From IMG/VR virus record IMGVR_UViG_3300005512_000015: 64,000 nt of DNA. One strand, given 5' to 3'. This document shows positions 4,494 to 57,819 of the stretch, one piece after another. The notes under the pieces are model-generated. The model was not told the DNA's origin. It saw nothing but the letters and a program-made list of their open reading frames with translations, and ran no database searches. Position 1 is the stretch's first letter. Every line of letters starts with the position of its first letter. This stretch comes from an uncultured virus (IMG/VR IMGVR_UViG_3300005512_000015) (Duplodnaviria > Heunggongvirae > Uroviricota > Caudoviricetes). Position numbers and translations under genes: made by a program.

Positions 4494-4495
4494 AA

Positions 4496-18203: not shown

Positions 18204-18265
18204 TTAGGTCCTTTTTGATATATTTGAATAATTATATCAAGTCCTTTATTAAAGAATGATTAAAA

Positions 18266-31028: not shown

Positions 31029-31958
31029 CTAATAGCAGCAATCATTGATAGCTTTTGTTACTTTTTGAACTTCTGCCATAATAGCATTAAAGTCAACTTT
31101 ACCTTGAACCTTGTATGTGAATGCGTGCATATGACCAATTGTTCTGTTACCAGTTAGTATTTCACGTAAATCATCTAGTTGAGTATTTGTATAAGATGTG
31201 TCTTGGTTAATCCTAACCTTAACAATACCCCATTCATTGATGCCAATTACAAAGTGTTTTCCTTCTCTCATTTCTTTAACAAGAATTTGATTAAACCATT
31301 CTTGAACAAATGCCACCGTAATATCACCAGCTCTATGAATTAGATTTCTATTTTCATATGATTTTAGTGCTTTGTCAAATTCAGTTGCAAATTGACTTAC
31401 TGCTGATTTGTAATTGTCTGGTAATTTATAACCATCTTCAACTATTTTATATGCTAGATCAGTTGTACCGAATCTCCAAAAATACTCATTTAAGTCTTGA
31501 GATACATCAAAATATGGAGACTTAACTTGCCATAAATCATAAACGTCAATTAGCGTTGATAAATTATCTAAGTTTTGGTTTTGACCTTTATTACCCAAGT
31601 ACTCGTTACAAAGAAGTGTAGCACTTTTAGTCTTATCCCATACAACTTTCATATTAGGAAAGTCATCCCAAAAACCATCCGGATATAAGTGATGGTCAAT
31701 ATGAGTACACTTATTAAACGTGTCATACAATGTTTTTAGTGCTGGCTTATTGTCAGCAAATGAAACATCCGGAATAACAATATTAGTATTACCATTTTGA
31801 GCTTGGTATCTAACAATGTCATCAACAATTTCATTAATATTTGCGTAATTCGTATGGTAATATCTTTTCTTCACAGTTGGGAACTTGTACTCTAAGTTGA
31901 TCATACAACCTAGAGCATCAAGATCGTTATGTGTAAAGACAATTAGCTCGTCTTTCAT
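31029..31958 (-). CDS. DHH-family phosphoesterase
   Basis: THNDLDALG, IDHH, SAT, YDLW, GHMHA. Confidence 0.85.
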   Translation of the reverse strand: MKDELIVFTHNDLDALGCMINLEYKFPTVKKRYYHTNYANINEIVDDIVRYQAQNGNTNIVIPDVSFADNKPALKTLYDTFNKCTHIDHHLYPDGFWDDFPNMKVVWDKTKSATLLCNEYLGNKGQNQNLDNLSTLIDVYDLWQVKSPYFDVSQDLNEYFWRFGTTDLAYKIVEDGYKLPDNYKSAVSQFATEFDKALKSYENRNLIHRAGDITVAFVQEWFNQILVKEMREGKHFVIGINEWGIVKVRINQDTSYTNTQLDDLREILTGNRTIGHMHAFTYKVQGKVDFNAIMAEVQKVTKAINDCCY

Positions 31959-32815: not shown

Positions 32816-33748
32816 TTACCAGTCATCTAGTTCTTGAGTTTCTTTTTCTAAGTCATAGTTCATTGGTTCAACCATAAGCATAAGAGGTTTTAAGAAATTC
32901 TTTTCAAAGTTTGTGTCATAATCAACACAATCACATTTTGCGATTTCATTTACAAAACTATCATTAGTAAACGCCACAATATTACTGTTGAACATGTTGG
33001 GCGTTTGTAAGAAGATACGTTTACATTTGTCTCCAGCTTGGATAGGTGCAAATTTATCAGTAAGATTGTTTTCTTCAATGTACATGTTATGACGTAAAGC
33101 AGCACGTGAACCAATTGGAACAGTATCTTTTTCAAGGTCATAATCAAGACGTGATACACCACCAACTGCTGCAATCATATTAAGATCAACAGTAGTAAAT
33201 TCCTGTTTGATATCCTTTACCCAATTGCGTAGATCAGATTCATCTTTATCCAAGATGTGCGGAATAGCTTGCTTAAGATATTTTTGAGACCATTTGGGTG
33301 TACTTGACTTAATAATTTCAAGACCCATAACTTTAATCTTAGGTGAATCACTTGGATAACGAGTACCTTCATTATCTCTTACACGAGCGTAGTACTTTTT
33401 CTTAGCAGTGAATACGGCAGCATCAGCAATGATTTCACGTTCACAACCAATTTTATCACGATTGTATGCATTCAATTCATCAGCAAAATCCTCAATAGTC
33501 TTTTGAATAGTTGGTTGAATAACCTTTTGCTCAAAGTTATCAGCCCAAGTAACATACTCATTAATATCAAGACCAGGGTTTTTAGCCATATACATTTCTA
33601 CAAAAGGCTCGATGTGATAGTATACGGAATTATGTACCAAAATATTATTACCAAAAAAGTTATGATTGCCTTCCACTTCTATATCATATACCCATTCTTC
33701 TTGAATGCCTAAATCTTCAATTTCAAAATTATCGCAAACTTCCATCAT
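32816..33748 (-). CDS. gp43: Split-intein C-half (about 40 aa) fused to DNA polymerase B C-terminal part
   Basis: VYDIEV..NHNFF.NNILVHN/SVY; AKKKYYA, KVMGLEIIKSSTP; ends LDDW. Confidence 0.93.
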   Translation of the reverse strand: MMEVCDNFEIEDLGIQEEWVYDIEVEGNHNFFGNNILVHNSVYYHIEPFVEMYMAKNPGLDINEYVTWADNFEQKVIQPTIQKTIEDFADELNAYNRDKIGCEREIIADAAVFTAKKKYYARVRDNEGTRYPSDSPKIKVMGLEIIKSSTPKWSQKYLKQAIPHILDKDESDLRNWVKDIKQEFTTVDLNMIAAVGGVSRLDYDLEKDTVPIGSRAALRHNMYIEENNLTDKFAPIQAGDKCKRIFLQTPNMFNSNIVAFTNDSFVNEIAKCDCVDYDTNFEKNFLKPLMLMVEPMNYDLEKETQELDDW

Positions 33749-33777
33749 TCATATCCTTTATATCCGTTATATGCTTT

Positions 33778-33799
33778 ATTATATCATAAGTTTATTTAA
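33778..33799 (-). promoter_or_regulatory. TTAA-N12-TATAAT promoter of IntC-pol
   Basis: Repeated motif. Confidence 0.6.
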
Positions 33800-34478
33800 A
33801 TTTACAATTATCGAAGTGCCATTGTTTCATCGCGCTACCTTTTCCTTCTTTTCCACAATGTGGGCATTTAACCGTTGGTTGATTTTTAAGTCTTTTCTTT
33901 GCGGCCTCTGACATTTTCTTTTTTTGTTCTTCGGATTTAGGTTTACCTTTCATTTTTTTAGAAAGGCTTTCTGCTTGTTTTGCTTTAGCTTGTTTACCTT
34001 CTTCCGTTTCTAACCATTTTTTGTTGGCTTCTATGATTTTTTTCTTTGCTTCGGGAGTATGTGTTTTTCCATACATACCATTCTTTTCCCCCTTTGAGGC
34101 ACGTTTTTTATTTATTTCATCTATTTCTTCTTGGGATTTTCCATTTTTCCAAAGTGCTTTACCAAAATTTGAGTTATTTTCTCCAGATGAATCAATGTGT
34201 GAAAACGAACCAAAACCGCCCAACGTCATATTATATGACATTTTATCATTCACGACATCTTCTGTTATCAATTCATTTTCCTTTTCTTTCATTTCTTCAT
34301 CAGTTTTGAACACAAAAAGAACTTCTTTTTCGAAGTTTTCTTTACCGTATTTTTCTATTGCTTTTTTCAATGCCACGCCTGAACCCAAATAATTATCATT
34401 CGGGTTTTTTGTTCTATGCATCCCTATATAATACTTTCCGTTTGTTTTGTTTATTGTTTTGTATATTGTGTAATTCAT
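33792..34478 (-). mobile_element. Free-standing GIY-YIG (Seg-like) homing endonuclease with NUMOD3 repeats
   Basis: IYKT.N..NGKYYIG, YLGSG, YN...GG, NGMYGKTHT, C-terminal CPHC. Confidence 0.92.
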
Positions 34479-34483
34479 ATAAT

Positions 34484-34491
34484 TATTTATA
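34484..34491 (-). promoter_or_regulatory. Late promoter TATAAATA, 5 nt before the endonuclease ATG
   Basis: Exact motif. Confidence 0.7.
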
Positions 34492-34496
34492 TGGAA

Positions 34497-35171
34497 CTAA
34501 ACTGAATCGGTAACAATTTTGATTAATTTATCTGATTTCAACACATCTTTTGGTTTTATTTCAATAAGTTTATCATCACGTACCACCATCATAGAGTGGT
34601 CTTCGGTAATAGTAACTTCATCACCATTGCATTTGATTTTATACATTCTTTTTTTAACTTTATGCTTCATAACATAGTTGATATTGTTATATTGTAATTC
34701 TTTATCCTTTGAAACTGAAGCAGCTTTAATTGGTATTTTTACATGCTTAATAAAGTTATGTTTACCACGAACCTCGATATCACCATCTAAATCTTTATAT
34801 AAATCTTCTATTGGAATATCACCATTATTTGTTTTAATTAATGTCGACCCTATTACTGAATCAGTATCACCATAAACAATATAAGGCTTTTCAGATGCGT
34901 GTAGCTTTTGAAGTGTTTCCTCAATATACTTAGCTAGCTTTTGGATAAAGTAACGACCATTACCGGTGATAGCTGCAGCCATTTCTTCATTGAACAGCGG
35001 GAACCACCGATTGGCCATGGCACCGTACAATGAGTTGATCATTGTTTTTTCAACTAATTGCTTAGTGTTATATAACGATTCACCATTTTGAGCTTGTTCA
35101 AGTAGTTCCTCGAGTTCTTCTTTGGGTAAAGACCGTAATTCATCTTCAGTATATTCTAATACGTTTTTCAT
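34497..35171 (-). CDS. gp43: DNA polymerase B middle part (motifs B and C) fused to a 120-aa split-intein N-half (34500-34859)
   Basis: KTMINSLYG, YGDTD/SVIGST, intein block B ITEDHS. Confidence 0.93.
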   Translation of the reverse strand: MKNVLEYTEDELRSLPKEELEELLEQAQNGESLYNTKQLVEKTMINSLYGAMANRWFPLFNEEMAAAITGNGRYFIQKLAKYIEETLQKLHASEKPYIVYGDTDSVIGSTLIKTNNGDIPIEDLYKDLDGDIEVRGKHNFIKHVKIPIKAASVSKDKELQYNNINYVMKHKVKKRMYKIKCNGDEVTITEDHSMMVVRDDKLIEIKPKDVLKSDKLIKIVTDSV

Positions 35172-35377
35172 ATCTTTCCTTCTAAATCCATATTAGTAAT
35201 TATATCATAGATTTGATTAAATTCTAGTTCATCTTTGACTTTCCAATTGCATGGTTTACATAGTTCCATGCTTACAGTCTTATGTGTTTTTTGTTTATAG
35301 AAATGATGAAGGCCTTTAGCCTTTTTGCATCTCGGACAAACTTGTGTTTCTTTAGATTTTTTCATGCTGTTATCCAA
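35168..35377 (-). CDS. Small Zn-finger protein
   Basis: CPRC...CKPC. Confidence 0.65.
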   Translation of the reverse strand: MDNSMKKSKETQVCPRCKKAKGLHHFYKQKTHKTVSMELCKPCNWKVKDELEFNQIYDIITNMDLEGKI

Positions 35378-35658
35378 TCAAAGTCTGTTTGCATCATTAT
35401 TGTTTCTGAGCCATCATACTCTTGAATTATAAATTTTGTATCAATTGGAACCCAGATTATTTCAATATCTTCAATTCCACCACTATATATTTGTCTTTTA
35501 TCGGCTAGTCTGCGAGCCTTTTCATATTCTTTTTTGATAAACAATTGATTGAAATCTGGATCAAGCGGAGAAACATCTGACCAAGTACTCCAACCTGCAC
35601 CAAACCCTCTAGACACGGCTATTGCAACTTCTTCGTAATCATTAATAATTCTATCCAT
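35362..35658 (-). CDS. Conserved phage hypothetical protein
   Basis: S.GFGAGWSTW, F.I.EYDGSE. Confidence 0.75.
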   Translation of the reverse strand: MDRIINDYEEVAIAVSRGFGAGWSTWSDVSPLDPDFNQLFIKKEYEKARRLADKRQIYSGGIEDIEIIWVPIDTKFIIQEYDGSETIMMQTDFDWITA

Positions 35659-35668
35659 TTTATATCCT

Positions 35669-36226
35669 TTACCATCTTTCAAATTTATTCAAATTTTCCA
35701 TAAACTTATCTGGAAATATTTCCCAAATAGTTTGGTTTATTCCTCTATAATCCATTTCTTTAACTTTTTTAACTACATCTAACTTAGCGAGAGTTGGAAA
35801 ATAATATTTGTGAACCAATCGCTGACTAGCATCTTTACTATTATTAGATGTTGCAAAAACTCTACCTCTTCCATTTACCCATTCTAAACAAGCCGGTGTA
35901 AGGAATTGATCAGTGAGATTTTGATGTTGAGCTATTAACTTTTTTGGTGTTATTAAACCATTTGATGGTCTAGCTTCACCAAATGTACATACTCTAGTAA
36001 GTATTCTATATGTATTTGGACCCATAACATCATCAAAAGAATGAGCTGCAACACTTCCTATAGGGATAAAATTTTGATAAAGAATCCAAGCATTCCATTC
36101 GCGTTCGTTGCGAAAACAATCAATCATAGCGGCCTGACTGGAATTATTAACAAACCCCTTTTCAGCTGCTTTCTTATAAAATGATGTTAGGTTTAAATCT
36201 TCTGACCATTCAATCATTTTATACAT
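35669..36226 (-). CDS. Hypothetical protein, possibly GNAT-fold
   Basis: WILY....IGSVAAH, YRILTR; fold call is a weak inference. Confidence 0.6.
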   Translation of the reverse strand: MYKMIEWSEDLNLTSFYKKAAEKGFVNNSSQAAMIDCFRNEREWNAWILYQNFIPIGSVAAHSFDDVMGPNTYRILTRVCTFGEARPSNGLITPKKLIAQHQNLTDQFLTPACLEWVNGRGRVFATSNNSKDASQRLVHKYYFPTLAKLDVVKKVKEMDYRGINQTIWEIFPDKFMENLNKFERW

Positions 36227-37817
36227 GTTGTTCCTTTAAGATTTGTTTGATTAGTACTGCTTGACGCTCATACTTAAACTGTTCTTTCTTAGCTTTTTTA
36301 CGAGAATCATAAATATCTTGTACCATTTCTGGTACCATACCAAGCTTGTCTTTGCTGAAGACCGCACCATTAATACCAAGTGCCATGTTGTTATCTTTTA
36401 GACATTGTGTTATAGCTTCCCATACTTCGGGTGGTAAATCAAGACGCTTTTCTTCATCTTGGTCATTGAAGTACTGCATAACAATATCTCGTAACTGATC
36501 AGGCAACTTATATTTAGGAATGTATGTTTCAGGACTCATGTTGAAACCAACCATACCAAGTAGCGGGTACATTGAGTTAACATCGGCAGAAACTACCCAT
36601 TTATGTTTACCTTTATTAGGATCACGAACATAACCACCTACAACATGTGGATTATCAAATTCAGTACGAGCCGGCATAACTTGGTTTGATAACATAGATT
36701 TGTTGTTAATGTATTGAGACCAAGGTTTTACTGTACCCATAGAGTCACCAATTTGAACACCCATCTTTTCTGAAATCATAGTCATAAGTACAGTAAAGTT
36801 TAGCTTTTCATCCAACCTACGAATAAGATATGTATCTTTAATACCATAGTAAACGAATTCAGAATGTGCCAATTCTTTTACTTCATCAGTATTACCAGCA
36901 ACTGCTGCTTGATAAATCTTAGATGCTTTTTGTTCATCGGTAGGATTATTAGGAATGATGTACTTACCCGTGTAAAAGTCATCAAATGCTGCATATTCAG
37001 TATGTTGTACTTTGTTTTCACCAAGCTCGATTTCAGAGATAGTATCAAGTGAATATGAAGGACGAGGAGCAAAAGTAAACTTTTTGTAGACATCCATAAG
37101 ATCAATATAGAAATGACCATCAGCATTTACGTTGAATTCAGTACGACCTTGAAATTCAGATTCTTTGTAAGATACTGAACCATAGTTTGATAGACGATCA
37201 GTTGCCATACCGAGATTTTTAAGACGATTATAGATGTAAGGGTAATCGAATCCTTTACCATTCCAAGCATAGATTACAAGTGGATCAAGCTTTTCAAAGA
37301 TGTTTAGATATGTTTCCAGTAAGTGTACTTCATTATCACATTTGATGTACTTAACGTCATAGTCAAAATTGTAATCAGATTCATGTTGCCAGTCGCGTAG
37401 ACCAAGTACAAACATAACTTTGGCTTTTGAATCATAGAATTGCATTAGTGAAATAGGTTCAGCTGCTTTTTCAGGAACTGGGAAACCTGTACTACAAGTA
37501 CCAACACGTGTTTCAATATCCAGATACCAGATTCTTGGGTCAACTTGATATTTGTCTTGATTCCAGTAGTTGTCACGAATATTACGATACATTGGATCAA
37601 GAAATCCATAGTGTTCACGACCTTGTTTAGCATTACCTTGCTTTTTGTCAAGTTTGATAGAGTCATCAAGGATGTAAGTATACAAACCACGCGAAGATGG
37701 TTCATACCATTCGTAGGGAAGATTGATTTTCTTTTTCATTGAACGACCTAGTTGGTCATCATAGTAACGCTCATAAAATTCATAGCCATCACGCCACGTA
37801 GATTCAAATAAATTCAT
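36219..37817 (-). CDS. gp43: DNA polymerase B N-terminal part (3'-5' exonuclease and motif A; gp43A-like)
   Basis: LDIET, WN...FD.PYI, SYSLD, Y.IKD, GGYV, DVNSMYP, SPET; ends in the fingers domain. Confidence 0.95.
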   Translation of the reverse strand: MNLFESTWRDGYEFYERYYDDQLGRSMKKKINLPYEWYEPSSRGLYTYILDDSIKLDKKQGNAKQGREHYGFLDPMYRNIRDNYWNQDKYQVDPRIWYLDIETRVGTCSTGFPVPEKAAEPISLMQFYDSKAKVMFVLGLRDWQHESDYNFDYDVKYIKCDNEVHLLETYLNIFEKLDPLVIYAWNGKGFDYPYIYNRLKNLGMATDRLSNYGSVSYKESEFQGRTEFNVNADGHFYIDLMDVYKKFTFAPRPSYSLDTISEIELGENKVQHTEYAAFDDFYTGKYIIPNNPTDEQKASKIYQAAVAGNTDEVKELAHSEFVYYGIKDTYLIRRLDEKLNFTVLMTMISEKMGVQIGDSMGTVKPWSQYINNKSMLSNQVMPARTEFDNPHVVGGYVRDPNKGKHKWVVSADVNSMYPLLGMVGFNMSPETYIPKYKLPDQLRDIVMQYFNDQDEEKRLDLPPEVWEAITQCLKDNNMALGINGAVFSKDKLGMVPEMVQDIYDSRKKAKKEQFKYERQAVLIKQILKEQHV

Positions 37818-37847: not shown

Positions 37848-37869
37848 ATTATATCAAGTCGTTGGTTAA
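37848..37869 (-). promoter_or_regulatory. TTAA-N12-TATAAT promoter of the polymerase
   Basis: Repeated motif. Confidence 0.65.
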
Positions 37870-38490
37870 TTTTTTTGGGATTTTATTAATGTGTGATATA
37901 GAACCAATTGGCTGATCTGGATTTACGATAACGCTTGGTTTAACTTCTTGAATAAATTTATGTAGAGTCTGATTAATGCCTGGCCAATTGCTACAATGAA
38001 TTAATATTGAACCGCCAAATTCTAACTTATTATAAATTTTATATAGTTGCTTATTAAACATATCGATTAGTTTGTCGCCATATCTATTTTGCATTTCTGT
38101 GCTTGGAGTGGCATCCCAAAATACTACATCGAAGTCTAAGTTAAAATCAAATTCATTTAAATCTGCATTTAAAATTTTGGCGTTATAACCGATTTTTAAA
38201 TAGTCCATTATTATTTTTAGTTTAAAGTCAAATGAATCATCTATGTCTATAGAGTATATTGGGACGTTTTTATTTGAATATGACAATAATATTGTTGTTC
38301 CGCCTTTTTCTCTTCCTGCTTCTAAAATACCAACTTTAGAGTTTTTTGAAATTCTATAAAGATATTCAATTTCTTTTGGATCAAGTCTAATAAATTCTTT
38401 GCCGATTACATTCAATTGAGTAATATTATAGTTAGAATATGAATCATCGTATGAGGTTCTACCGCATGCCTTTAATTCATCTAATTCCAT
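37849..38490 (-). CDS. Class I SAM-dependent methyltransferase (Methyltransf_24-like)
   Basis: ILEAG...GGTT, IYSID, FDVVFWDA, L..GG.I.IH. Confidence 0.75.
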   Translation of the reverse strand: MELDELKACGRTSYDDSYSNYNITQLNVIGKEFIRLDPKEIEYLYRISKNSKVGILEAGREKGGTTILLSYSNKNVPIYSIDIDDSFDFKLKIIMDYLKIGYNAKILNADLNEFDFNLDFDVVFWDATPSTEMQNRYGDKLIDMFNKQLYKIYNKLEFGGSILIHCSNWPGINQTLHKFIQEVKPSVIVNPDQPIGSISHINKIPKKLTNDLI

Positions 38491-38605
38491 ATTTCACCCA
38501 TTATATATCATTCTGTTCATTATTTACGGGTTTTCATGATTCATGAACGTTTAGAATTGTTGAACACTACAGGACGATAAGATGATATTTTGGTATATAA
38601 TCCAT

Positions 38606-38908
38606 TTACTCATCACCAGGAGCTTCAACATTATTCCGTTTAATAACATAAATACCTACGTCATCGTCATATTTCATCAGAGACTTTACAATACGTATTT
38701 GTTCGGGAGTCATCTTCATCCAGGTGTTAGTGTAAGTGCCTTCATACCCGCTAGGTAAAACTTCTTCCCAGTACCAGTACTCATCATCTTCGAAAGTAAA
38801 GAACCTATAAGCTTCATAATAAGAAATCCAAGGTACACCTTCTGTATAATTCGTATGTTCTTTGTAAATGTATACTTTTTTTGCAAATAGTCGTTTAAAG
38901 AAGTTCAT
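38606..38908 (-). CDS. Hypothetical protein
   Basis: Start revised to MNFFKRL (ATGA overlap). Confidence 0.6.
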   Translation of the reverse strand: MNFFKRLFAKKVYIYKEHTNYTEGVPWISYYEAYRFFTFEDDEYWYWEEVLPSGYEGTYTNTWMKMTPEQIRIVKSLMKYDDDVGIYVIKRNNVEAPGDE

Positions 38909-39111
38909 AGTCGTTCCCACCATTCCTTTTCTATAATATAATAATTGAGTTTTTCGTCTATCACACAAAGTGTGGTGTATATGCTCAATGGGAATAAAAG
39001 TAAAGTCCACAAAATAAACGGAAATTTATATGAACCTAAGTATAGTTCCGATAGAATAAGAAATGAAGTATGTAAGCTCCATAATATAATAATCAGATGT
39101 AAATGTTTCAT
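38905..39111 (-). CDS. Small membrane protein
   Basis: Start revised to MKHLHL; AAGGA SD; two TM segments. Confidence 0.6.
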   Translation of the reverse strand: MKHLHLIIILWSLHTSFLILSELYLGSYKFPFILWTLLLFPLSIYTTLCVIDEKLNYYIIEKEWWERL

Positions 39112-39124
39112 AATATAGTCCTTT

Positions 39125-39420
39125 AATTGGAATGAGTATCCCATTGCCCTTATTTCTAAGGATTGCCGACGCATTACGCTCACTCGTCTAAGGTTTTTGA
39201 TTTGCTACACACGGAGAAGTACCTTAACTCCGTACGAGCCACTTGGATACTCATTAAGAATAACACCAGACTCAGTTTAAAGAAGGGAGCTCCAACTATT
39301 AATCCTATCCGATGCTATTTTTAATAAGCCATCACGACCTCTTAGGAATATGGTTCCGCAAGATTGCGGAACCAGATCTTCTAGGACAGGTTTAAGGTTA
39401 CCACATCAAATCGTTCAATA
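39125..39420 (-). ncRNA. Candidate structured RNA A (or long 5' leader)
   Basis: 11-bp long-range helix, 10-bp hairpin, GAAA tetraloop, candidate pseudoknot; no credible ORF. Confidence 0.55.
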
Positions 39421-39454
39421 TCACGATTCTCGCAAAAGTAAACAATTATTTTAA

Positions 39455-40072
39455 TTAAATCTCAGCCAATTTATCCATTGCAAGTTTAAATGCATTTTCA
39501 TCTTTAGCGTCAATATAAACTTTATTGCCCTTAGCTCTTTTCATGATTCTAACTTTAATACCTGCTTTAGTGTCATGCAATAGCTTCTTAATCATATTAG
39601 ATTCTTCGTCATCTGCATCTACTATAGCGCGAGGATTAGTTAATTTAGTGTTAGCCGAGCCTAAAGTTCCTTTTAGCTCTTTAGGTAGAACAACATTAAA
39701 ATTACCAACAACTGTTTGGTCTTTCGCCGGACCGGTTTTAGCTGCACCAGCTTTCGGGATAGGCTTTTTGCTTAAGTTTTTCTTCAATTCAGGATAAAAA
39801 TCTGCGATTTCGCTATCACTCATTCCTAAATAGGCTGGGTGTCTTAAAATTTTTACAACTTGATCTGGATCGCCTGAAATATCAACTATTCCTTTGTTTT
39901 TAGTAGGTGTAATTTTTACCCGAAGAGAATCCCAAGCATTTCGAATTAACGCGGTTTCGTCCCTTGTATTAGGTATCCAATCGGCATCTATTTTGATTTC
40001 TTTTTTCTCATTCAAGTGAACTGAGGCATAAGCTTCAGATATTTGTTGAATATAATCTTTAAAAGTTTCCAT
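39455..40072 (-). CDS. Putative internal head protein
   Basis: METFKDYI..ISE...LNE; late promoter at 40120-40127. Confidence 0.6.
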   Translation of the reverse strand: METFKDYIQQISEAYASVHLNEKKEIKIDADWIPNTRDETALIRNAWDSLRVKITPTKNKGIVDISGDPDQVVKILRHPAYLGMSDSEIADFYPELKKNLSKKPIPKAGAAKTGPAKDQTVVGNFNVVLPKELKGTLGSANTKLTNPRAIVDADDEESNMIKKLLHDTKAGIKVRIMKRAKGNKVYIDAKDENAFKLAMDKLAEI

Positions 40073-40121
40073 TTTTTTTTCCTATCTTAATTAAATACTA
40101 CATATATGTTATACTATTCTA

Positions 40122-40420
40122 TTTATAGTAAGCCCTTATACAACCACCGCCTGCCGAAGCTTCGAGAGGAATTACATATAAAGATTCACTAATCATATTT
40201 CAATCATTATAGTGGCGAATAATGATAACACTTCCACTTAATTTCTAGTGTTCTGATTTATAGTATCGTACTAGGAACAACACTTGCTTTCTAATTCAGA
40301 CCATAACCTAAATTATCAAACTTACCCGTAAATTTAAGCATACCCTTATGGAGGTGTACTTGCCAGTAGGTAGTGGGTCAATCTGCTCTACTGGTGAGTT
40401 TGGTGCTATGTCGGCTTATT
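40122..40420 (+). ncRNA. Candidate structured RNA B (strand uncertain)
   Basis: Terminal helix and several internal helices; TGnTATACT at 40107-40115; no ORF. Confidence 0.5.
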
Positions 40421-41024
40421 TGTTTTTAAAATAATCTAGATTCTCAGCTTTTAACTTTGTGGCTTCATCGTATGAGATAACTTCCATACTACCATAAGAG
40501 TCAGGGTATTTTGGAAGACCATAATCTTTTAAATTCTTAATCCATTTAGCTGACTTGGCTTTAGATGCAGCGTGAACTGAATTGGTCTTACGGTAATAAA
40601 GATAATACTTATTAAAGTTATGTTGGTAAGGAATACCTTTCTCATCTAGATAAGCTTTCAACCACCATTCGAGAGACTTAGTAATATCAGTTAATATACT
40701 TTTAGTTTCGTTCTTACGCCAATCAAGATAACCAGCACTTAAATCGGTTCCGAAATCCCAGATTTCTTTTGGAGCATCTACATTTTTTCTATTATCATAA
40801 TCTGTGAACTTCTTAAATTCATATGGAGTATCATATCCCCATTCTTGACCACCGGTTGCCATATAGTTATTTTCATCATCCATTTCGGAGTGATTATTCC
40901 ATACATCTACGACAATATCAGGTAAGATATTATTAACAATTTCCCATCTATCACCGTATTTCTTGGCTTTAACAACCAGCTTTTTGGCTTGTGCTTCATT
41001 TAAAAATTCTTTAAACTGACCCAT
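40416..41024 (-). CDS. Putative internal head protein
   Basis: MGQFKEFLNEA closely matches the T4 CTS. Confidence 0.65.
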   Translation of the reverse strand: MGQFKEFLNEAQAKKLVVKAKKYGDRWEIVNNILPDIVVDVWNNHSEMDDENNYMATGGQEWGYDTPYEFKKFTDYDNRKNVDAPKEIWDFGTDLSAGYLDWRKNETKSILTDITKSLEWWLKAYLDEKGIPYQHNFNKYYLYYRKTNSVHAASKAKSAKWIKNLKDYGLPKYPDSYGSMEVISYDEATKLKAENLDYFKNK

Positions 41025-41071
41025 GTTATTTCCTTTTAGACTTTATATCTATTTATTCATTTCTTAAATCT

Positions 41072-41114
41072 ATTATAACATGTCATTAAATAAAAGTAAA
41101 CAATTATATAAATA
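41072..41114. promoter_or_regulatory. Early promoter (-, 41072-41101) and divergent late promoter (+, 41107-41114)
   Basis: Exact motifs. Confidence 0.7.
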
Positions 41115-41119
41115 AATTT

Positions 41120-41398
41120 ATGAAGAAAACATACCTTTACATAATGTTCGATCCAGATAAACCTTCTAAATGTAAGGTGGGTATAACTATAAATATTGAA
41201 CAAAGGCTACGGTCTTATAGAACAGCTAGTCCTCAGTGTACATTTACATATACAACCGAAATACCTAATAAGAGATTCGAAAAGGAAATACACGAATTAC
41301 TTAAAGATACTATACTGTTAGACCGAGAATACGTTCATTGTAACCCAACTATCGTACAAAACATAATAGAAGGGTATATGACAGATAAAGGTTATTAG
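41120..41398 (+). CDS. T5orf172/GIY-YIG-like small protein
   Basis: YLYIM...KVGIT.NIEQRL.SY.TASP. Confidence 0.8.
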   Translation: MKKTYLYIMFDPDKPSKCKVGITINIEQRLRSYRTASPQCTFTYTTEIPNKRFEKEIHELLKDTILLDREYVHCNPTIVQNIIEGYMTDKGY

Positions 41399-41607
41399 CC
41401 TTCAAGCTTATCAATAATATGAGCTAATAGTTCATGCTGAGTGATAATATCCTTTTCAGAACCTTCTTCTAGAAAACTATTCTTTATAGTCAATAAATAC
41501 ATATCATCTCTAATTTCGACGTGCATAATATGTTCAACTGGAGTATCGATGCCAGTTTCTTCTGTAACGATCTCAGCTAAGTATTTTTTAAAGTTATCGT
41601 TAATCAT
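41395..41607 (-). CDS. Hypothetical protein
   Basis: Start revised to MINDNF. Confidence 0.6.
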   Translation of the reverse strand: MINDNFKKYLAEIVTEETGIDTPVEHIMHVEIRDDMYLLTIKNSFLEEGSEKDIITQHELLAHIIDKLEG

Positions 41608-41827
41608 TATTAGTACCCTCTTTATACAAAAATAAAACTTGAAGCAAATCAAACTCACCATAAGTCAGTGAGAACCGTTCAAAGGTGTTACTACGACTAA
41701 TGTGAACATCAACACCTTCACCATTAGTCCAATGAGTCACTTCCATAAAATCATGTTCACCTGCCATAATACAATATGGACCTAGCTCAGACGATACTGC
41801 TTTACGGTTATTCACTTGGGTCAACAT
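41600..41827 (-). CDS. Hypothetical protein
   Basis: EVTHWTNGEGVDV pattern. Confidence 0.7.
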   Translation of the reverse strand: MLTQVNNRKAVSSELGPYCIMAGEHDFMEVTHWTNGEGVDVHISRSNTFERFSLTYGEFDLLQVLFLYKEGTNND

Positions 41828-41990
41828 TAGCTTCAGCCCTCAACAAAGTCATATCAAAATTATAGAACTTTAATAAGACAGCACAAGCAAGCTCTACCGT
41901 CTCATCTCCAGAATTTAAAAACTGAGTCTTTAACTCTTCAATAATGATTTCATCATATTGTTCATCTGATATAGTCAATTCTAGTTTCAT
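41808..41990 (-). CDS. Hypothetical protein
   Basis: Coupled ORF. Confidence 0.6.
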   Translation of the reverse strand: MKLELTISDEQYDEIIIEELKTQFLNSGDETVELACAVLLKFYNFDMTLLRAEANVDPSE

Positions 41991-42601
41991 TATACCACCT
42001 TCAATTGTTCAAATGTAACAAAAGCTTCTAGATTGATATCTCTGAGTTTCTTTTCTGTTTCAGTCTCATCCCATTCTTTACCGCAGAACGTATAGAGATT
42101 AGCCACGCGATGTCTATAAGCTTCTTTGTCTAATAAGAAAAAAACAATATATTCAGCTTCAATAAGAGTTTTATCTTTAAATGATGTTAAGATGTTAAAC
42201 CTACGATTAGTCAAATCAAAAGCCATATTGTGTAAAATTTGGTCGTCATACCATAAAGCGTTATTGACCCAAGATTGAGATAGATTGTATTCAGATTTAA
42301 AATCAAAACTGTTAGCAATGTAGTCTAAGTATTCTTTGTCAGTTTGAACTACTTTCAGAACCTTTTCAATATACGAACCGTCTTCAGTACATACAATCTC
42401 TTCATCTCCATCAAAATTATCTCGAAGATACTCAATAGCCTCAGATACATTCATGCCATCAAGCGTATCAAGGTATGCAGTATCGTAATCATCAAGATCC
42501 CTTTCAGCAATACTCCAGTTGAATCCGATAGTATAGTCATTGAATTGTTCTAGGAAATTATAAACTTTTTTGATTTCATTGATTTGTTTTTCATAATACA
42601 T
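41990..42601 (-). CDS. Hypothetical acidic protein
   Basis: 203-aa ORF with GGAG SD. Confidence 0.7.
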   Translation of the reverse strand: MYYEKQINEIKKVYNFLEQFNDYTIGFNWSIAERDLDDYDTAYLDTLDGMNVSEAIEYLRDNFDGDEEIVCTEDGSYIEKVLKVVQTDKEYLDYIANSFDFKSEYNLSQSWVNNALWYDDQILHNMAFDLTNRRFNILTSFKDKTLIEAEYIVFFLLDKEAYRHRVANLYTFCGKEWDETETEKKLRDINLEAFVTFEQLKVV

Positions 42602-42604
42602 AAA

Positions 42605-42790
42605 TTACTCCTTGTGACTAGGTAGAGAAGTTAGAATTCGTTCAGCTTGGGAATTCCATTGTGACCAATACTTCTCAACGTTCTCCTTAACATCAAGTCT
42701 TTCTTCTTTAAGTAAAGCTTTATTCATACCAATAAAGAATTCTATAGCTAGTTCTCTAGCTAGTATTTCAGTTTGAGTTCTATCGCACAT
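42605..42790 (-). CDS. Hypothetical protein
   Basis: AAGGA SD. Confidence 0.6.
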   Translation of the reverse strand: MCDRTQTEILARELAIEFFIGMNKALLKEERLDVKENVEKYWSQWNSQAERILTSLPSHKE

Positions 42791-42967
42791 ATTAGTTTTC
42801 CTTGTATGCCTTATTCTTAACTTGTGTATATTCTATACATTTGTAAATCACGGGATTAGATGATATAAGTTTCTTTTGTGTACACACAGTATAGTATTCT
42901 TGAGGAGGGCTATTACGTGACATACCAGTCAAGAATACAATAGATACTAGTAGTAGGATAACTTTAG

Positions 42968-43150
42968 TCATGATTTTTTCTCTAAGTTATCCAGTATATG
43001 AATCAGAATAAATGTAATGACCATCAAGCTAATTGACAAAAATCCCATACCTATAATAATAGGGTTTTGTGTCTCATTACCCAAGTGAAATATATAAACT
43101 GGGGTTAAAAAAGTAAGCCCCATCAAAGTAATCCAAAATATAACGTTCAT
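42968..43150 (-). CDS. Small membrane protein
   Basis: Two TM segments. Confidence 0.6.
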   Translation of the reverse strand: MNVIFWITLMGLTFLTPVYIFHLGNETQNPIIIGMGFLSISLMVITFILIHILDNLEKKS

Positions 43151-43321
43151 AATTTAATCCTTTTTGTCTACAAATAGATTAACAGCACTAGCCACAACCG
43201 CATGTAATGCTGTTTTTTGTTCTTTGGTTAACTCTCCAGTTACAGCTACACAAAAGTTTTCATGTACCGCAGACTTGCTGGTATAAACCACTCGATCATT
43301 TACTTCTACAATATTCATCAC

Positions 43322-43618
43322 TTACTCCTTAAACCATTCAATAGGTGCGTTGTTCTTTTCATATTCAAATACCAAAGCATTCAGATTCATATATCTCAAG
43401 CTACTATAACTTTCAAGGAAGTTAGTAAAGCTTCTCCACGATTCGCCTGTCATAATAGGTAGTCCGATTTCATCTCTACCCTTGTAGGTTTCTTCGTACA
43501 TTGGGTCGGTATCATCATCGCAATAAACATCAATACGACCACCAGCCCAGCCACCACCATTCTTCTTGATAAAGTCTGGATTGAGTGGTCCCATCCAATT
43601 AGTACTATAAGTCCACAT
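43322..43618 (-). CDS. Hypothetical protein
   Basis: AGGA SD. Confidence 0.7.
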   Translation of the reverse strand: MWTYSTNWMGPLNPDFIKKNGGGWAGGRIDVYCDDDTDPMYEETYKGRDEIGLPIMTGESWRSFTNFLESYSSLRYMNLNALVFEYEKNNAPIEWFKE

Positions 43619-43626
43619 AGTTAATC

Positions 43627-44010
43627 CTATTTTATAGATTTCATATCATCTACAATATCGTCTATATTATTAATAATAGACATAGTTACATCATAATCAG
43701 TAGATACACCAAGTCTATGGATTTTATGTTTTAGAGCTTGAAGATCTCTAATATAATCACCATAAACATGGTCAACAATCCTGCGTCTAGCTTCTTCTCT
43801 CATTCTTCTTAGTTCATGGATGTTTCCATGATAAACATCATCCACTATATAACTAGCATCAATTGTCACTTTACTAATGTATTCAGTAACCCTACTCATA
43901 GACTGTTTGGGTAGAGTTTCATCACTCACCATACTCATACTATAAGATCTAGGCTTTTTAAGTCCTTCGCATTCTACAATACCATTAAATATATTAGACA
44001 TTATATCCAC
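43627..44010 (-). CDS. Hypothetical protein
   Basis: ORF track. Confidence 0.65.
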   Translation of the reverse strand: MDIMSNIFNGIVECEGLKKPRSYSMSMVSDETLPKQSMSRVTEYISKVTIDASYIVDDVYHGNIHELRRMREEARRRIVDHVYGDYIRDLQALKHKIHRLGVSTDYDVTMSIINNIDDIVDDMKSIK

Positions 44011-44023
44011 CTTTCTTTATTTC

Positions 44024-44476
44024 TTATTTGTATGCGTAAAATACGTGATTACCAATTAATCCTAGCTTAGCAATCTGTTGGCTTTTTGACCATGTAGGTT
44101 TAATAGCTGTTGTATGATAATGCGTAGCGTGAGTGATACGAGGAGACTTACCACTTAGTACACGTTGTGAGATATATAAAGCTAACTCATATTCTTCTGA
44201 ATCTTCGTCAATTTTAAGAGTTTGAGCTTTACCATCATTGACGCAAGAGAATTGATACTTCTGACGAGTTACTTCATAAACAGAATTAGGCCATCTTTTA
44301 GACTCGACTCTATTCATTATAACATCAGCAACGGCCATCATACCAACACGTCCTTCACCACGAGCTTCACAATACAGAGTATCAGCCATATAGAACATGT
44401 CATTAACATCGTAATTGTTAGATGCATTAGCTGAGAATGATGATGCTAACATAGCCGATAAGATTAACTTTTTCAT
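44024..44476 (-). CDS. SleB/Hydrolase_2 cell-wall hydrolase with signal peptide
   Basis: Start MKKLILSAM; YCEARGE...AVADVIMNRV, YQFS, ATHYH, IGNHVFY. Confidence 0.9.
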   Translation of the reverse strand: MKKLILSAMLASSFSANASNNYDVNDMFYMADTLYCEARGEGRVGMMAVADVIMNRVESKRWPNSVYEVTRQKYQFSCVNDGKAQTLKIDEDSEEYELALYISQRVLSGKSPRITHATHYHTTAIKPTWSKSQQIAKLGLIGNHVFYAYK

Positions 44477-44718
44477 TATACTTTCTCCGATGGACGAGTG
44501 AATGGTGAATGTTTCCAATAGATACCAAAATCAGGATCAACAACTTTTGCTAAATCACGAATAGCTTGTAGATGCTCAGCACCAGCTATTCTAAATGATC
44601 TATCATCAGAATATTCATAAGACCAGTCATGAGAATTTAATAACTGAAGGTATCTCTCCATAAGAGGTTTGATAGCTTCTTCAGGAGTTTGAATTGATTC
44701 AATATGTAGCTGTTTCAT
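44476..44718 (-). CDS. Hypothetical early protein
   Basis: HDWSYEYSDD motif; directly behind an early promoter. Confidence 0.7.
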   Translation of the reverse strand: MKQLHIESIQTPEEAIKPLMERYLQLLNSHDWSYEYSDDRSFRIAGAEHLQAIRDLAKVVDPDFGIYWKHSPFTRPSEKV

Positions 44719-44729
44719 AACTTATTTCC

Positions 44730-44788
44730 TTATTTCTTGAATCTATTATAATATAAAATTTAGAAAAAGTAAACAATTATTTCACTTT
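44730..44788 (-). repeat. Early-promoter cassette repeat, copy 1
   Basis: AAGTGAAATAATTGTTTACT-N17-TATAATAGATTCAAGAAATAA. Confidence 0.75.
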
Positions 44789-44796
44789 ATTTTCAA

Positions 44797-45051
44797 TTAT
44801 TTTTCACTAGGACAATTACCATATACGCTGAATACACCTAAATATTTAATAATTGAATATTCAGATTCTTCTTCTACTCTAGCACTAAATCTAAATGATG
44901 ATTTGTTTAAACAAAATGTATTTTTAGATAACGTATTCTGTACATTATTTATTATACCATCAGTATGTGTAATATCAAAAATAACTGGTTTTTCGTATTG
45001 CTCTTCTATCTCTTTGATAAAAGTTTCTAGTACACCATCTTGACTTTTCAT
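44797..45051 (-). CDS. Hypothetical protein
   Basis: Coupled ORF. Confidence 0.6.
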   Translation of the reverse strand: MKSQDGVLETFIKEIEEQYEKPVIFDITHTDGIINNVQNTLSKNTFCLNKSSFRFSARVEEESEYSIIKYLGVFSVYGNCPSEK

Positions 45052-45461
45052 AATTTAATAAACTCTCCATCTTTGACCTGAAACATATCTACTTTGCCAT
45101 TACTACGAGTGTAATGACGTCCACCATCAATCATATTACCATTATCGAACTTCTTATAATCATGACGATGTTGACTGTACTGATAATTACCATCATCATC
45201 TTGGATAGCTGCAAAGTCATATTCTTCTACAGCATCCATTGAAGTAATAGTGCCACGACCCATACCATCCATAAAGATACCAAAGTAGCGATTACCAAAC
45301 TCAGGATGAGGTGTATCTCTATAGTAGACGTCAGCTACTATTGATGTAGGAAGGATTTCGGTAGTACACACGTATTTGACATCGCAGCCATCTTTCTCAG
45401 AATACATTTCAATTACTTTTTGTTGGTCAAACTCTTTAAGTGGTTCATGTAATACATTCAT
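45048..45461 (-). CDS. Conserved phage hypothetical protein
   Basis: Start MNVLHEP; TPHPEFGNRYFG, YSQHRHDY, IDGGR. Confidence 0.75.
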   Translation of the reverse strand: MNVLHEPLKEFDQQKVIEMYSEKDGCDVKYVCTTEILPTSIVADVYYRDTPHPEFGNRYFGIFMDGMGRGTITSMDAVEEYDFAAIQDDDGNYQYSQHRHDYKKFDNGNMIDGGRHYTRSNGKVDMFQVKDGEFIKL

Positions 45462-45471
45462 AATATAACTC

Positions 45472-45705
45472 CTAATATATGTCAACACAATTGAATTCAA
45501 AATCTTCGTGAGATATGCTGAAAGTGATTTCTGATAAATCGTCTTCTTTAATACTAGCTTCACATAATAAAGATGTACCAGAAGCGTCTATTACAGATAC
45601 ACTATAATCTAAAATCTCATCGATAGAATCTACACCAGTATCACCATAATAAAAAACTTGTTTACCTGATGATAATGCGTCTCTAATTTTTCCTAAAGTA
45701 ACCAT
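45472..45705 (-). CDS. Hypothetical early protein
   Basis: GAGGA SD; behind a promoter. Confidence 0.65.
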   Translation of the reverse strand: MVTLGKIRDALSSGKQVFYYGDTGVDSIDEILDYSVSVIDASGTSLLCEASIKEDDLSEITFSISHEDFEFNCVDIY

Positions 45706-45722
45706 AATATAATCCTCTTTCT

Positions 45723-45780
45723 TTATTTCTTGAGTCTATTATAATACACAATTGAGAAAAAGTAAACAGTTATTTCACTT
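45723..45780 (-). repeat. Early-promoter cassette repeat, copy 2
   Basis: AAGTGAAATAACTGTTTACT-N17-TATAATAGACTCAAGAAATAA. Confidence 0.75.
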
Positions 45781-45911
45781 TTGTTTTAATAATATGCTTA
45801 ATAATTTTATATTCAATCTTTTGGGCTTTCTTAAACTTACCTTTAAGGTTGGCCTTTGTTAGCTTTCGATATAGTTTCTTTAGTTTGTCGTGATACTTTA
45901 ATACACTCATT

Positions 45912-46376
45912 TTAGTAGTCCCATCTTATTGGTGTTCTTAGTGAAAATATTTTGGTTTGTTTATCAATCAGTTTACATTCTACTAGTTCGAATAAAACCT
46001 CTCGAGTTACATGAACTTCGTCAGCAAAGATATATCTTGCAGGAGTAGGGTTTAGTCCGTTAAAGCGTAATTTATCGATGCGTGAACCGAATCTGTCGTC
46101 CCGTACTTGAAAGATTAAGTCTCTTCTTGATGTTCTTTCAACTCTTTCTGGACGGTGATGAGTTAATAGAATATCACCGTTTCTATAATGGTCCATAATA
46201 AATGTAGACTTACCGACTTGTCTAGGACAAACAATCTCGACCATATTCCATTCAGTTAGATAGTGTTCAATAGACATACTATTTACATAGACATCATCTA
46301 GAGGAGCTTTATTGTTACCACACGTCAATAGGTTCCAAGCATTTTTAAATAGGTCTTGCCAGTTATCTTTATTCAT
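45912..46376 (-). CDS. Small terminase-like P-loop protein
   Basis: PRQVGKST and IFADE motifs. Confidence 0.6.
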   Translation of the reverse strand: MNKDNWQDLFKNAWNLLTCGNNKAPLDDVYVNSMSIEHYLTEWNMVEIVCPRQVGKSTFIMDHYRNGDILLTHHRPERVERTSRRDLIFQVRDDRFGSRIDKLRFNGLNPTPARYIFADEVHVTREVLFELVECKLIDKQTKIFSLRTPIRWDY

Positions 46377-46383
46377 ACTGTTC

Positions 46384-46659
46384 TCACTTTACTCTTTCTC
46401 CTAATATGACTTTGTAGTACATTAGGTTATTGTAGTCTTCTGTGTTGTTTACACAGGATAAAGCTCCTTCAAGCACTTCAACATCATGCTTGGCTAGTGA
46501 TTGTTGTGGGGTTTGATTAACCTTATCCAAGTCAACCTTCATGCCATTGCCTAGCATGTAGCAGCATTCTTTTAGGTGTTCACAATGAGTCACAAGCTCT
46601 GCGTTTTGTTGTTCTAGTTCATTTATTTTTTGCCTTAATTCTGTATTTTGTGTTGTCAT
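46384..46659 (-). CDS. Hypothetical coiled-coil protein
   Basis: ORF track. Confidence 0.65.
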   Translation of the reverse strand: MTTQNTELRQKINELEQQNAELVTHCEHLKECCYMLGNGMKVDLDKVNQTPQQSLAKHDVEVLEGALSCVNNTEDYNNLMYYKVILGERVK

Positions 46660-46822
46660 TATTCTTTACCTTTCAATTTACACTCAAAGACATTATCAAC
46701 TACATAAAAATGACCAGTCTTAATACAGTCTTCATTAACTGAATCTAATGTTGTAGTATAAGCTATTCCGTAAACAAAAGCGGTCCAAACAAATCCAAAA
46801 ACTACAGCAATCGTCATATCTT

Positions 46823-47038
46823 TCATTCTTTATCCTTCAGTTGAGTTTTTACTGTTGCCCATTCTAAAGAAACAAAATCAAACATACCGTCGTGACCTTC
46901 AGCTACTAGCGTTTCAACTGCGTGGTATTTCTCGAGCCACACAACAGTGTCTGTACCCGAAATCGAAGTAGGCACCCAAGCAAACCTTTCAACAAGTCGA
47001 GTATCACCTTCTTTGTATTTCTTATTTTCCCATCTCAT
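46823..47038 (-). CDS. Hypothetical early protein
   Basis: FAWVP...VWLEKY; behind a promoter. Confidence 0.65.
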   Translation of the reverse strand: MRWENKKYKEGDTRLVERFAWVPTSISGTDTVVWLEKYHAVETLVAEGHDGMFDFVSLEWATVKTQLKDKE

Positions 47039-47055
47039 ATTAATTACCTTTTGTT

Positions 47056-47110
47056 TTATTTCTTGAATCTATTATACCATAGTTTTCTTAAAATGTAAAC
47101 AATTATTTTT
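47056..47110 (-). repeat. Early-promoter cassette repeat, copy 3
   Basis: AAATAATTGTTTACA-N17-TATAATAGATTCAAGAAATAA. Confidence 0.75.
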
Positions 47111-47118
47111 AATTATTT

Positions 47119-47355
47119 TTAATTAATTCCAATATTCATATTATTAGATGCTTTTACGGCTTTGTCAGCAAAATCTTTTAACCATTCCTGCATATAATCA
47201 TCTATTGCATTATTATCAATAGTACCTTTAGGATCTGTATTAATTACATTGTAGTCAACTGTTAACATATTATCATCACCTAAGTTTAGAGATTTAACTT
47301 CGATGATAATATCTAGATCATCAGGATATTGCAAAGTTGCTATTATATCTTTCAT
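47119..47355 (-). CDS. Hypothetical protein
   Basis: Coupled ORF. Confidence 0.6.
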   Translation of the reverse strand: MKDIIATLQYPDDLDIIIEVKSLNLGDDNMLTVDYNVINTDPKGTIDNNAIDDYMQEWLKDFADKAVKASNNMNIGIN

Positions 47356-47597
47356 TCTTTATCCACGTGCATTAAATTGTAGTTATCCCAATAGAAGAAA
47401 TAACACAACCAACGAATATCAATTATCGTTATAGTGCCTGCAGGTTTAATTCTAATCTTAGGTAACCAAAACCACCAACTGTAATTGAATTTAGGAGGAA
47501 CCTCATTAACTTCTGTTAAGTGATCAATCTCTTCTTGATCTCCAGTATAGAGTTTAGCAGCTTTACCTAGTACAATGAAATGATTGCCAATTTGCAT
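47352..47597 (-). CDS. Hypothetical protein
   Basis: Coupled ORF. Confidence 0.6.
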   Translation of the reverse strand: MQIGNHFIVLGKAAKLYTGDQEEIDHLTEVNEVPPKFNYSWWFWLPKIRIKPAGTITIIDIRWLCYFFYWDNYNLMHVDKE

Positions 47598-47755
47598 TAG
47601 TATTCTCCTTCGAGATGTATCTTTTCAAACTTGGTCAGCTTACCAGACTTCAACCATTCTAGTGCTACTTTATTAGCTTCCATGATGTCAGTGAATTGAC
47701 CTATTCGTACTTGATTACCAGCTACGGTGTTATGTCTATATAAATTCCAAATCAT
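47597..47755 (-). CDS. Hypothetical protein
   Basis: Start revised to MIWNLY (ATGA overlap). Confidence 0.55.
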   Translation of the reverse strand: MIWNLYRHNTVAGNQVRIGQFTDIMEANKVALEWLKSGKLTKFEKIHLEGEY

Positions 47756-47943
47756 AAAATAGTACTTAAATGATAAAGAATATAAGGCGTAGATAAACCT
47801 AAAATAAGACCAATCGAAAACCATACGAAACGGCTTGGAGGTGGTATTAAGTATTCATCATTTAACAGCCTGCCGTTTACGTAAAGTTTTCCGTTCTTGT
47901 TCTCTAAAGTTGTTCCATTGATACTAGATTTTGTATATCCCAT
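47752..47943 (-). CDS. Small membrane protein
   Basis: Start revised to MGYTKS; C-terminal TM segment. Confidence 0.55.
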   Translation of the reverse strand: MGYTKSSINGTTLENKNGKLYVNGRLLNDEYLIPPPSRFVWFSIGLILGLSTPYILYHLSTIL

Positions 47944-47947
47944 TTCA

Positions 47948-48487: not shown

Positions 48488-48497
48488 TCTTTATCCT

Positions 48498-48872: not shown

Positions 48873-48890
48873 AATATATTCTCTCTTTCC

Positions 48891-48945
48891 TTATTTCTTG
48901 AATCTATTATAACAGGTAATTCAGAAAAAGTAAACAATTATTTTT
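48891..48945 (-). repeat. Early-promoter cassette repeat, copy 4
   Basis: AAATAATTGTTTACT-N17-TATAATAGATTCAAGAAATAA. Confidence 0.75.
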
Positions 48946-49156: not shown

Positions 49157-49281
49157 TTTTTAAAAATTCCACGCTTATTTTATAAATTGTATAGTAAAAA
49201 ATATTAAAGTTGTGTAGAACACTAACATTAAAACTATTCCAAATAATGCTTTAATAGTATATCTCCTTTAAGCAAACAAAT

Positions 49282-56432: not shown

Positions 56433-56434
56433 TT

Positions 56435-57817: not shown

Positions 57818-57819
57818 GT

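Follow-up and report, generated by a model that had tools for sequence, protein, structure and literature searches.

A compact, uncatalogued structured RNA in a T4-like phage and its proposed role as a 5′ leader

Introduction

Late and lysis genes of T4 such as e and soc have their ribosome binding site (RBS) hidden in a helix on transcripts that arrive from upstream, the masking helices being single hairpins that are opened by a late promoter inside them. The RNA described here likewise comes from a T4-like phage and would likewise have its RBS hidden in a helix, but there is no TATAAATA within the leader. It precedes a gene for a 68-aa protein, which exceeds the length of most type I toxins, and at ~300 nt it compares with ~600–800 nt for the structured RNAs OLE, ROOL and GOLLD.

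Leaders of type I toxins are the nearest in kind, above all that of timP in the timPR type I system, where the Shine-Dalgarno (SD) sequence is reported to be switched by long-range pairings together with a pseudoknot in the 5′ UTR (PMC13000454). Such leaders (PMC13000454, PMC11228461) are long, structured and pseudoknotted, like the present RNA, and their long-range pairings govern the SD of a small membrane-protein gene, as is proposed here. Our RNA differs from timP in being phage-encoded, in having a 68-aa, two-segment protein behind it and in its three domains, and neither an antitoxin RNA nor a sequence match was found. The encoded protein is small and hydrophobic, as expected of a type I toxin (two hydrophobic segments, conserved in its one homologue, P0006). 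By analogy, the RNA would work like the timP leader, a resemblance that does not by itself make it a member of the type I toxin–antitoxin systems.

Paired ends, several domains with pseudoknots and a possible kissing loop are also found in OLE, ROOL and GOLLD (10.1101/2024.12.08.627333) and in raiA (RF03072), and GOLLD and ROOL share the phage setting. Unlike these, the RNA matches no model, its closing stem covers an RBS and it has no family of homologues. The PeSL promoter cassettes of T4-like phages (PMC2839356, PMC4122927) are likewise reported to place repeated early promoters in a variable gene block; this likeness explains the setting and not the RNA, whose own promoter has kept just its left half intact. 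Large multi-pseudoknot RNAs without a family have in the past been a source of new riboswitches, ribozymes and RNA assemblies. The RNA reported here is a real, uncatalogued and compact structured RNA, for which we give a full 298-nt testable model with named alternative pairings and a candidate target gene; it is also a singleton, which caps its value for now.

Genomic setting

The window, by which we mean the whole stretch of 64,000 nucleotides analysed, is part of a T4-like myophage, with PHROG matches to DNA polymerase, clamp, clamp loader, helicase, topoisomerase, terminase and prohead protease, and almost every gene in it is carried by the minus strand. The closest named records are six Vibrio phages of 191–196 kb whose polymerase is 66–67% identical, a figure that reaches 69–80% in IMG/VR fragments. 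ATPase and polymerase lie less than 500 nt apart in the relatives; here they are parted by an 11.5-kb block of small genes (37849–49157), and the RNA lies within it. The block consists mostly of orphan genes and carries five near-identical early promoters and a crippled one, an arrangement like that of PeSL-type shuffling. One database contig (L001/L132) is the same phage and has an identical RNA; a cluster of substitutions with a 12-nt in-frame deletion is seen there within the 100-aa gene (L132 ~2130–2190, window 38720–38790), its flanks being identical.

On the minus strand there is no terminator between the upstream 205-aa gene and the RNA, nor between the RNA and the 68-aa gene, so that read-through from the late promoter upstream of the former would also transcribe the RNA. 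The 205-aa protein has a C-terminal domain common to proteins of other large phages. It and the product of 40416–41024 (minus strand) start with an M-x-x-F-K...E-A leader of the type seen in head-internal proteins of T4-like phages. An Atlas search with the 202-aa protein gave no usable match.

Extent, strand and promoter

The RNA was first noticed, in a sequence-only reading, as a GC-elevated region at 39125–39445. These bounds are corrected here to about 39408–39111, since 39445–39409 is promoter and lies outside the RNA, and since the fold extends to the AUG at 39111 (Table 1). The elevation in GC is real but modest, at 40–42% against 30–33% in the flanks, with nearby coding DNA reaching 38–40%. 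The RNA is larger and better bounded than first described, and a concrete leader mechanism can be modelled for it.

Folding is stronger on the minus strand than on the plus strand (z −3.8 versus −2.0), except for the stem 39335–39400, for which the plus strand gives the better fold (z −5 to −6). We assign the RNA to the minus strand because of its GAAA tetraloop and the G-U extensions of P2, P3 and PK1, all found on that strand only, and because of its loop geometry: on the minus strand PK1 has a first loop of 0–1 nt, a second stem of 6–7 bp and an A-rich third loop of 15–16 nt. Such lengths make a workable H-type pseudoknot, and the mirror image is unworkable.

Exact TTTAC-N-TATAAT promoters occur 12 times in the phage, compared with 0.86 expected. 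The GTTTAC −35 that had been reported is present at 39438–39443 on the minus strand, and the −10 described as weak is indeed degenerate, leaving a crippled promoter that ranks 13 with the matrix and scores 12, compared with 20–33 for the 11 strong promoters. The +1 predicted from it falls at about 39408–39406. Around the −10, at 39409–39428 (minus strand), lies a 6-bp inverted repeat resembling an operator. At the predicted 5′ end, on the 5′ strand of P0, the RNA reads AUG-UGG-UAA (Met-Trp-stop; 39406–39398, minus strand), which could be a leaderless minigene or chance.

Table 1. Features of the RNA and its surroundings (positions in the window).
Feature	Position	Strand	Remarks
Structured RNA, proposed 5′ leader	~39111..39408	-	298 nt
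Upstream/−35 half of early promoter (−35 at 39442–39437)	39434..39450	-	letter-for-letter the left half of promoters 44773 and 48934
Degenerate −10, TATTGA	39415..39420	-	16-nt spacer; within 6-bp inverted repeat
P0 5′ strand with anti-SD CCUU (39397–39394)	39394..39408	-	folding past the first boundary
P0 3′ strand: SD AAAGGA (39124–39119), spacer, A of AUG	39111..39124	-	GGA core unpaired probability 0.01–0.06
Domain 1: 4-bp base, internal loop, 10-bp hairpin 39374–39351	39337..39391	-	hairpin better on plus strand
Anti-P1 strand	39321..39329	-	pairs with 39257–39249 and excludes P1; in minimum-energy fold
Domain 2: 13-bp G-U-rich helix (39319–07/39271–59), 4-bp upper helix, loop 39298–39281	39259..39319	-	
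PK2 5′ strand, domain 2 loop	39292..39298	-	7 bp with 39130–39124
PK2 3′ strand	39124..39130	-	gapless between P1 and P0
8-nt palindrome GGAGCUCC, domain 2 loop	39286..39293	-	sole 8-nt palindrome in region; 2-nt overlap with PK2
PK3 strand, putative, weak	39302..39306	-	5 bp (one G-U) with 39387–39383 of domain 1
Domain 3, closed by P1 (39255–45/39141–31, 11 bp)	39131..39255	-	
Stacked P2 (39238–34/39187–83), P3 (39233–28/39216–11), PK1 (39227–21/39194–88), A-rich linker	39183..39238	-	
P4, 5-bp hairpin with GAAA tetraloop	39148..39161	-	
Upstream 205-aa gene	39455..40072	-	behind late promoter TATAAATA at 40127–40120
68-aa gene, two hydrophobic segments, charged C-terminus	38905..39111	-	one homologue, P0006
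100-aa orphan gene	38606..38908	-	ATGA overlap couples it to the 68-aa gene; only a near-identical relative found

Architecture of the fold

Six pairings had been named from the letters, and all are exact Watson-Crick complements at their coordinates. A proposed UCCUA/UAGGA domain stands in part: both motifs are present, UCCUA twice and UAGGA once, which leaves room for one such pairing at a time. Our model arranges the RNA as a closing helix, P0, around three domains. PK1 lies inside domain 3, PK2 connects the 3′ strand with domain 2, and a weak PK3 links domain 1 to domain 2. P0 (39408–39394 with 39123–39111) comprises 9 + 4 bp (3 of the 13 pairs are G-U), and the 31 nt from 39141 to 39111 are tiled by P1, PK2 and P0 in turn, without gap or overlap. 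The palindrome GGAGCUCC may possibly serve as a dimer contact.

The 11-bp helix of the sequence-only reading, P1, holds as a complement, but not in the minimum-energy fold: without pseudoknots P1 is absent, the competing anti-P1 pairing being better by 1.8 kcal/mol, and the pair probability of P1 is ~0.3. We infer that PK1 and PK2 together would tip the balance toward P1.

Strength of the fold against controls

The strand 39108–39408 folds with −93.1 kcal/mol (z −5.06), and none of 100 shuffles folds as well. Of 400 dinucleotide shuffles, 0 contained two Watson-Crick helices of ≥10 bp and 1% contained one of ≥11 bp, while a 13-bp helix with G-U pairs allowed is seen in 12% of shuffles. The descriptor for P2, P3 and the pseudoknot, which was composed with the sequence already known, matches none of 1000 shuffles, and its sole match in the 64-kb window is the RNA site. 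Among 165 minus-strand tiles of 298 nt (tiling up to 48945), a test likewise designed post hoc, the RNA ranks second in folding excess, level with the coding tiles 7225–7522, 31661–31958 and 4245–4542 (minus strand). The untailored greedy sum of helices is matched by 50 of 685 shuffles (7%) and is not significant. When the tail was shuffled 5000 times, pairings as good as P0 arose in 0.4% of cases, as good as PK2 in 0.7% and as good as both jointly in none; of 9140 sampled minus-strand 21-mers, 0.1% pair with the 3′ strand of P0 as well as its 5′ strand does.

The downstream gene

The 68-aa protein has a single match among 1.84 billion representatives, P0006, which is also 68 aa long, is 53% identical over the full length and shares the same Met start, so that we consider the open reading frame real and its start to lie at 39111. 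The two hydrophobic segments and the charged tail are present in P0006 as well. Searches of Pfam, PHROG and the Atlas gave no usable match for the 68-aa protein. The RBS of the gene is closely similar to the ordinary RBS behind promoter 45766. Within the region itself no credible open reading frame had been seen, and none emerged: the seven of ≥20 aa are short or antisense, or lengthen the 68-aa gene by 24 codons from a GTG start, an extension that P0006 lacks.

Known families and relatives

Covariance models of Rfam 15 gave 0 matches in the window at their gathering cut-offs; with E up to 10, five matches were obtained at 39110–39460, all at chance level and none to a ribozyme family. The initial view that this is neither tRNA nor tmRNA is borne out by ARAGORN (0 genes) and by the tmRNA model RF00023, without a match at E 10 on its own contig (G007). 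On that contig type A RNase P (RF00010) gave no candidate, and group I intron (RF00028), SAM-I riboswitch (RF00162), raiA (RF03072) and pistol (RF02679) models gave no match at E 10. Judged by eye, PK2 takes the position of P4 in RNase P but lacks the conserved letters, the U conserved in the P3 3′ strand of SAM-I is missing, and the strand order is not HDV-like. Fits by eye to the consensus of RNase P, SAM-I, c-di-GMP-I, HDV, pistol, group I and II introns and IS200/605 ends were all dropped. A solitary CRISPR repeat (Racr; PMC10651486) was also rejected as a candidate, the match to CRISPR-DR35 being at chance level (13.8 bits against a cut-off of 35, E 8.4).

The collection of homologues that the sequence-only reading had called for yielded only the identical copy, L001/L132. 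By blastn, no other relative came up in 50,697 phage records, queried with the whole region and with each half of it, or in 72,556 plasmids, queried with the region. Four pattern scans of IMG/VR were made: one gave at least 117 stretches, with nhmmer over 118 loci returning own copies only; another gave 6, of which 5 were chance; another at least 119, of which 80 of 119 were scored with the model for 0 hits; and the last gave 2, one of them our own. Of two pattern scans of GTDB genomes, one gave 0 stretches and the other 18 (19 loci scored, none real). We also built two covariance models, R1 (domain 3) and R2 (domains 1–2), each from a single sequence and therefore weak. Against three complete Vibrio phages and G001 they gave two weak and unconvincing hits, and they found no relative in five IMG/VR relatives, in 32 loci, or in 12 of the 15 loci of relatives of the upstream protein, nor did R2 in 46 loci; single-sequence covariance models matched 0 of 151 bacterial genomes (class of G008). 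A looser descriptor, scanned over the collected loci, gave six matches, all without the context of domain 3. These methods miss distant RNA relatives, so the results indicate rarity within the data searched and not absence. Six 12-letter motifs were not found in three of the six supplementary files of PMC10690425, and at the level of titles and abstracts (among them PMC10085705 and 10.64898/2026.09.22.753630) no published description of the RNA was found.

A proposed leader and its alternatives

Three options had been offered for the region: ncRNA, ribozyme or regulatory leader of unknown class. That it is a structured RNA outside the known classes stands; of the three, the leader comes out strongest, given a 5′ end that can pair across the RBS and the lack of a terminator after it, a stand-alone ncRNA is possible and a ribozyme is unsupported. 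We tentatively propose, at somewhat short of an even chance, that the RNA is a cis-acting 5′ leader which keeps the 68-aa membrane-protein gene, and the 100-aa gene coupled to it, translationally off. The closing helix P0 covers the SD and the spacer and takes in the A of the AUG; PK2 and then P1 adjoin it gaplessly on the same 3′ strand, and the SD core is paired with a probability >0.9 in the folding model. Two either-or pairings can potentially form: the anti-SD strand (39398–92) may pair with the SD or with the loop of P3 (39227–21), the latter competing with PK1, and P1 may form or anti-P1, which would also unseat PK2. In the folding model the anti-SD is taken by the P3 loop while the growing transcript is 190–200 nt long, and it pairs with the SD once the RNA is complete. 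The OFF state would be the compact one, with P1, PK1, PK2 and P0 formed, and the ON state would arise when the anti-SD is caught by the P3 loop or the 5′ end is removed. Candidate triggers are trimming of the 5′ end by a nuclease, the action of a protein or small ligand on domain 3, or a ribosome that occupies the AUG-UGG-UAA. The purpose may be to limit, until it is needed, a two-helix membrane protein (holin-, immunity- or toxin-like) that could be harmful.

The leader is favoured by the agreement of the fold ends with independent landmarks (the predicted +1 and the start codon), by the rarity of P0 and PK2 in shuffles and 21-mers, the paired SD core and the missing terminator, by a downstream gene that is real and starts at 39111, by the anti-SD switch in growing transcripts, and by the precedent of timP (PMC13000454). 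Against it, accessibility of the SD region (0.38) falls within the range of 10 control early leaders (0.29–0.93, with 7 of 10 at ≥0.68) and rises little when the 5′ strand of P0 is deleted (0.43; 0.71 with domain 3 alone). P0 may itself be chance, since 3 of its 13 pairs are G-U and the RBS so closely resembles that behind promoter 45766. The promoter is weak, three domains exceed what masking an SD needs, the tiling and descriptor tests are post hoc and the untailored helix sum reaches only 50 of 685, and no RNA homologue was found that could supply covariation or a link to the downstream gene. No gene for an antisense RNA was identified: a weak plus-strand promoter-like site is present, no terminator lies over the leader, and the window has one 13-nt antisense match elsewhere, at 41007. 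An elaboration, which we rate as quite unlikely, makes the leader a new three-domain, multi-pseudoknot switch, in which domain 3 senses a ligand or protein, with input such as a host defence or stress signal, and competition between PK1 and anti-SD capture gates translation of the membrane protein in lytic infection; if true, this would be a new layer of phage gene control and a riboswitch-like sensor of new architecture.

The paired ends, three domains, two to three pseudoknots, GAAA loop and A-rich linker are also the build of a stand-alone RNA, and a free-standing ornate ncRNA of a new class, cut from the early or late transcript, is possible if on the unlikely side. P0 would then be its closing stem, the RBS being included only through insertion into a promoter–RBS cassette, and the RNA might work in trans, serving as scaffold or decoy and perhaps dimerising by its palindromic loop. 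Consistent with this, the promoter half and RBS resemble the phage's standard cassette with ~300 nt between them, a second gene-free gap lies 620 nt upstream, and the palindrome sits in an apical loop; OLE, ROOL and GOLLD are reported to multimerise by kissing loops (10.1101/2024.12.08.627333). However, there is no terminator, and release would strip a real gene of its RBS; the palindrome overlaps PK2; and searches of three complete Vibrio-phage relatives and of contigs from closer ones did not find it, contrary to what one would expect of a widely useful RNA. Its being a singleton throughout the searches would also suit an insert that is non-functional or decaying, or hairpins clustered by chance, within a variable gene block, where insertion broke the promoter. 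The coding tiles at 7225, 31661 and 4245 that equal it, the greedy helix sum, the stem of domain 1 that is better on the plus strand and the location in a block absent between ATPase and polymerase of the relatives all point the same way, but we think it unlikely: the 11- and 10-bp helices are perfect and undecayed, the pseudoknot has the right shape, a GNRA loop is present, and the ends fall on the +1 and AUG.

As a compact nested pseudoknot, domain 3 has the size of a ribozyme, and by eye the strands flanking P4 bear a superficial likeness to J4/2 of HDV. It is nevertheless very doubtful that the RNA is a new class of ribozyme, self-cleaving or processing, which by trimming late read-through transcripts would expose or protect the message downstream, as the strand order is, by eye, unlike that of HDV or pistol, the pistol and group I models are empty at E 10 on the contig itself and no Rfam ribozyme matches. 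We regard as extremely improbable a functional RNA on the plus strand, whether a solitary CRISPR-repeat mimic (Racr) at 39136–39170 or an antisense RNA. The former position does match CRISPR-DR35 weakly, the 39335–39400 stem is better on the plus strand and there is a promoter-like site at 38914–38942 (plus strand), but the match is at the level of chance, the promoter-like site sits within conserved coding sequence, and the minus strand is the better choice on pseudoknot geometry, on the GAAA loop and on the G-U pairs.

A second gene-free region and other observations

The gap upstream of the RNA, region B (40129–40418, minus strand), lies just before the late promoter; it is closed by a 6-bp helix, contains a UUCG loop and may form pseudoknots. 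Its folding is no better than that of shuffles (z −0.5; 339 of 685), and it has no Rfam match and no sequence similarity to the RNA locus (region A), the halves of which show no similarity to each other either.

Elsewhere in the window, the polymerase is encoded in three pieces (32816–37817, minus strand), the middle one having an intein-like segment at its end; next comes a free-standing GIY-YIG endonuclease gene (33792–34478) with its own late promoter (34484–34491), and then the last piece, which together look like a fractured gene with a split intein. A cluster of methyltransferase-, glucosyltransferase-, thymidylate-synthase- and pyrophosphohydrolase-like genes (53843–61222, minus strand) suggests modification of DNA bases. 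Among the relatives, two Vibrio phages, Va1 and phiKT1024, carry an odd tRNA-like element ending in CCA within their tRNA clusters (L302 16246–16346 and L287 ~18150–18260), and a related phage contig has what is presumably an IS200/605-like right end, followed by a hairpin-rich, gene-free stretch (L306 2742–3092).
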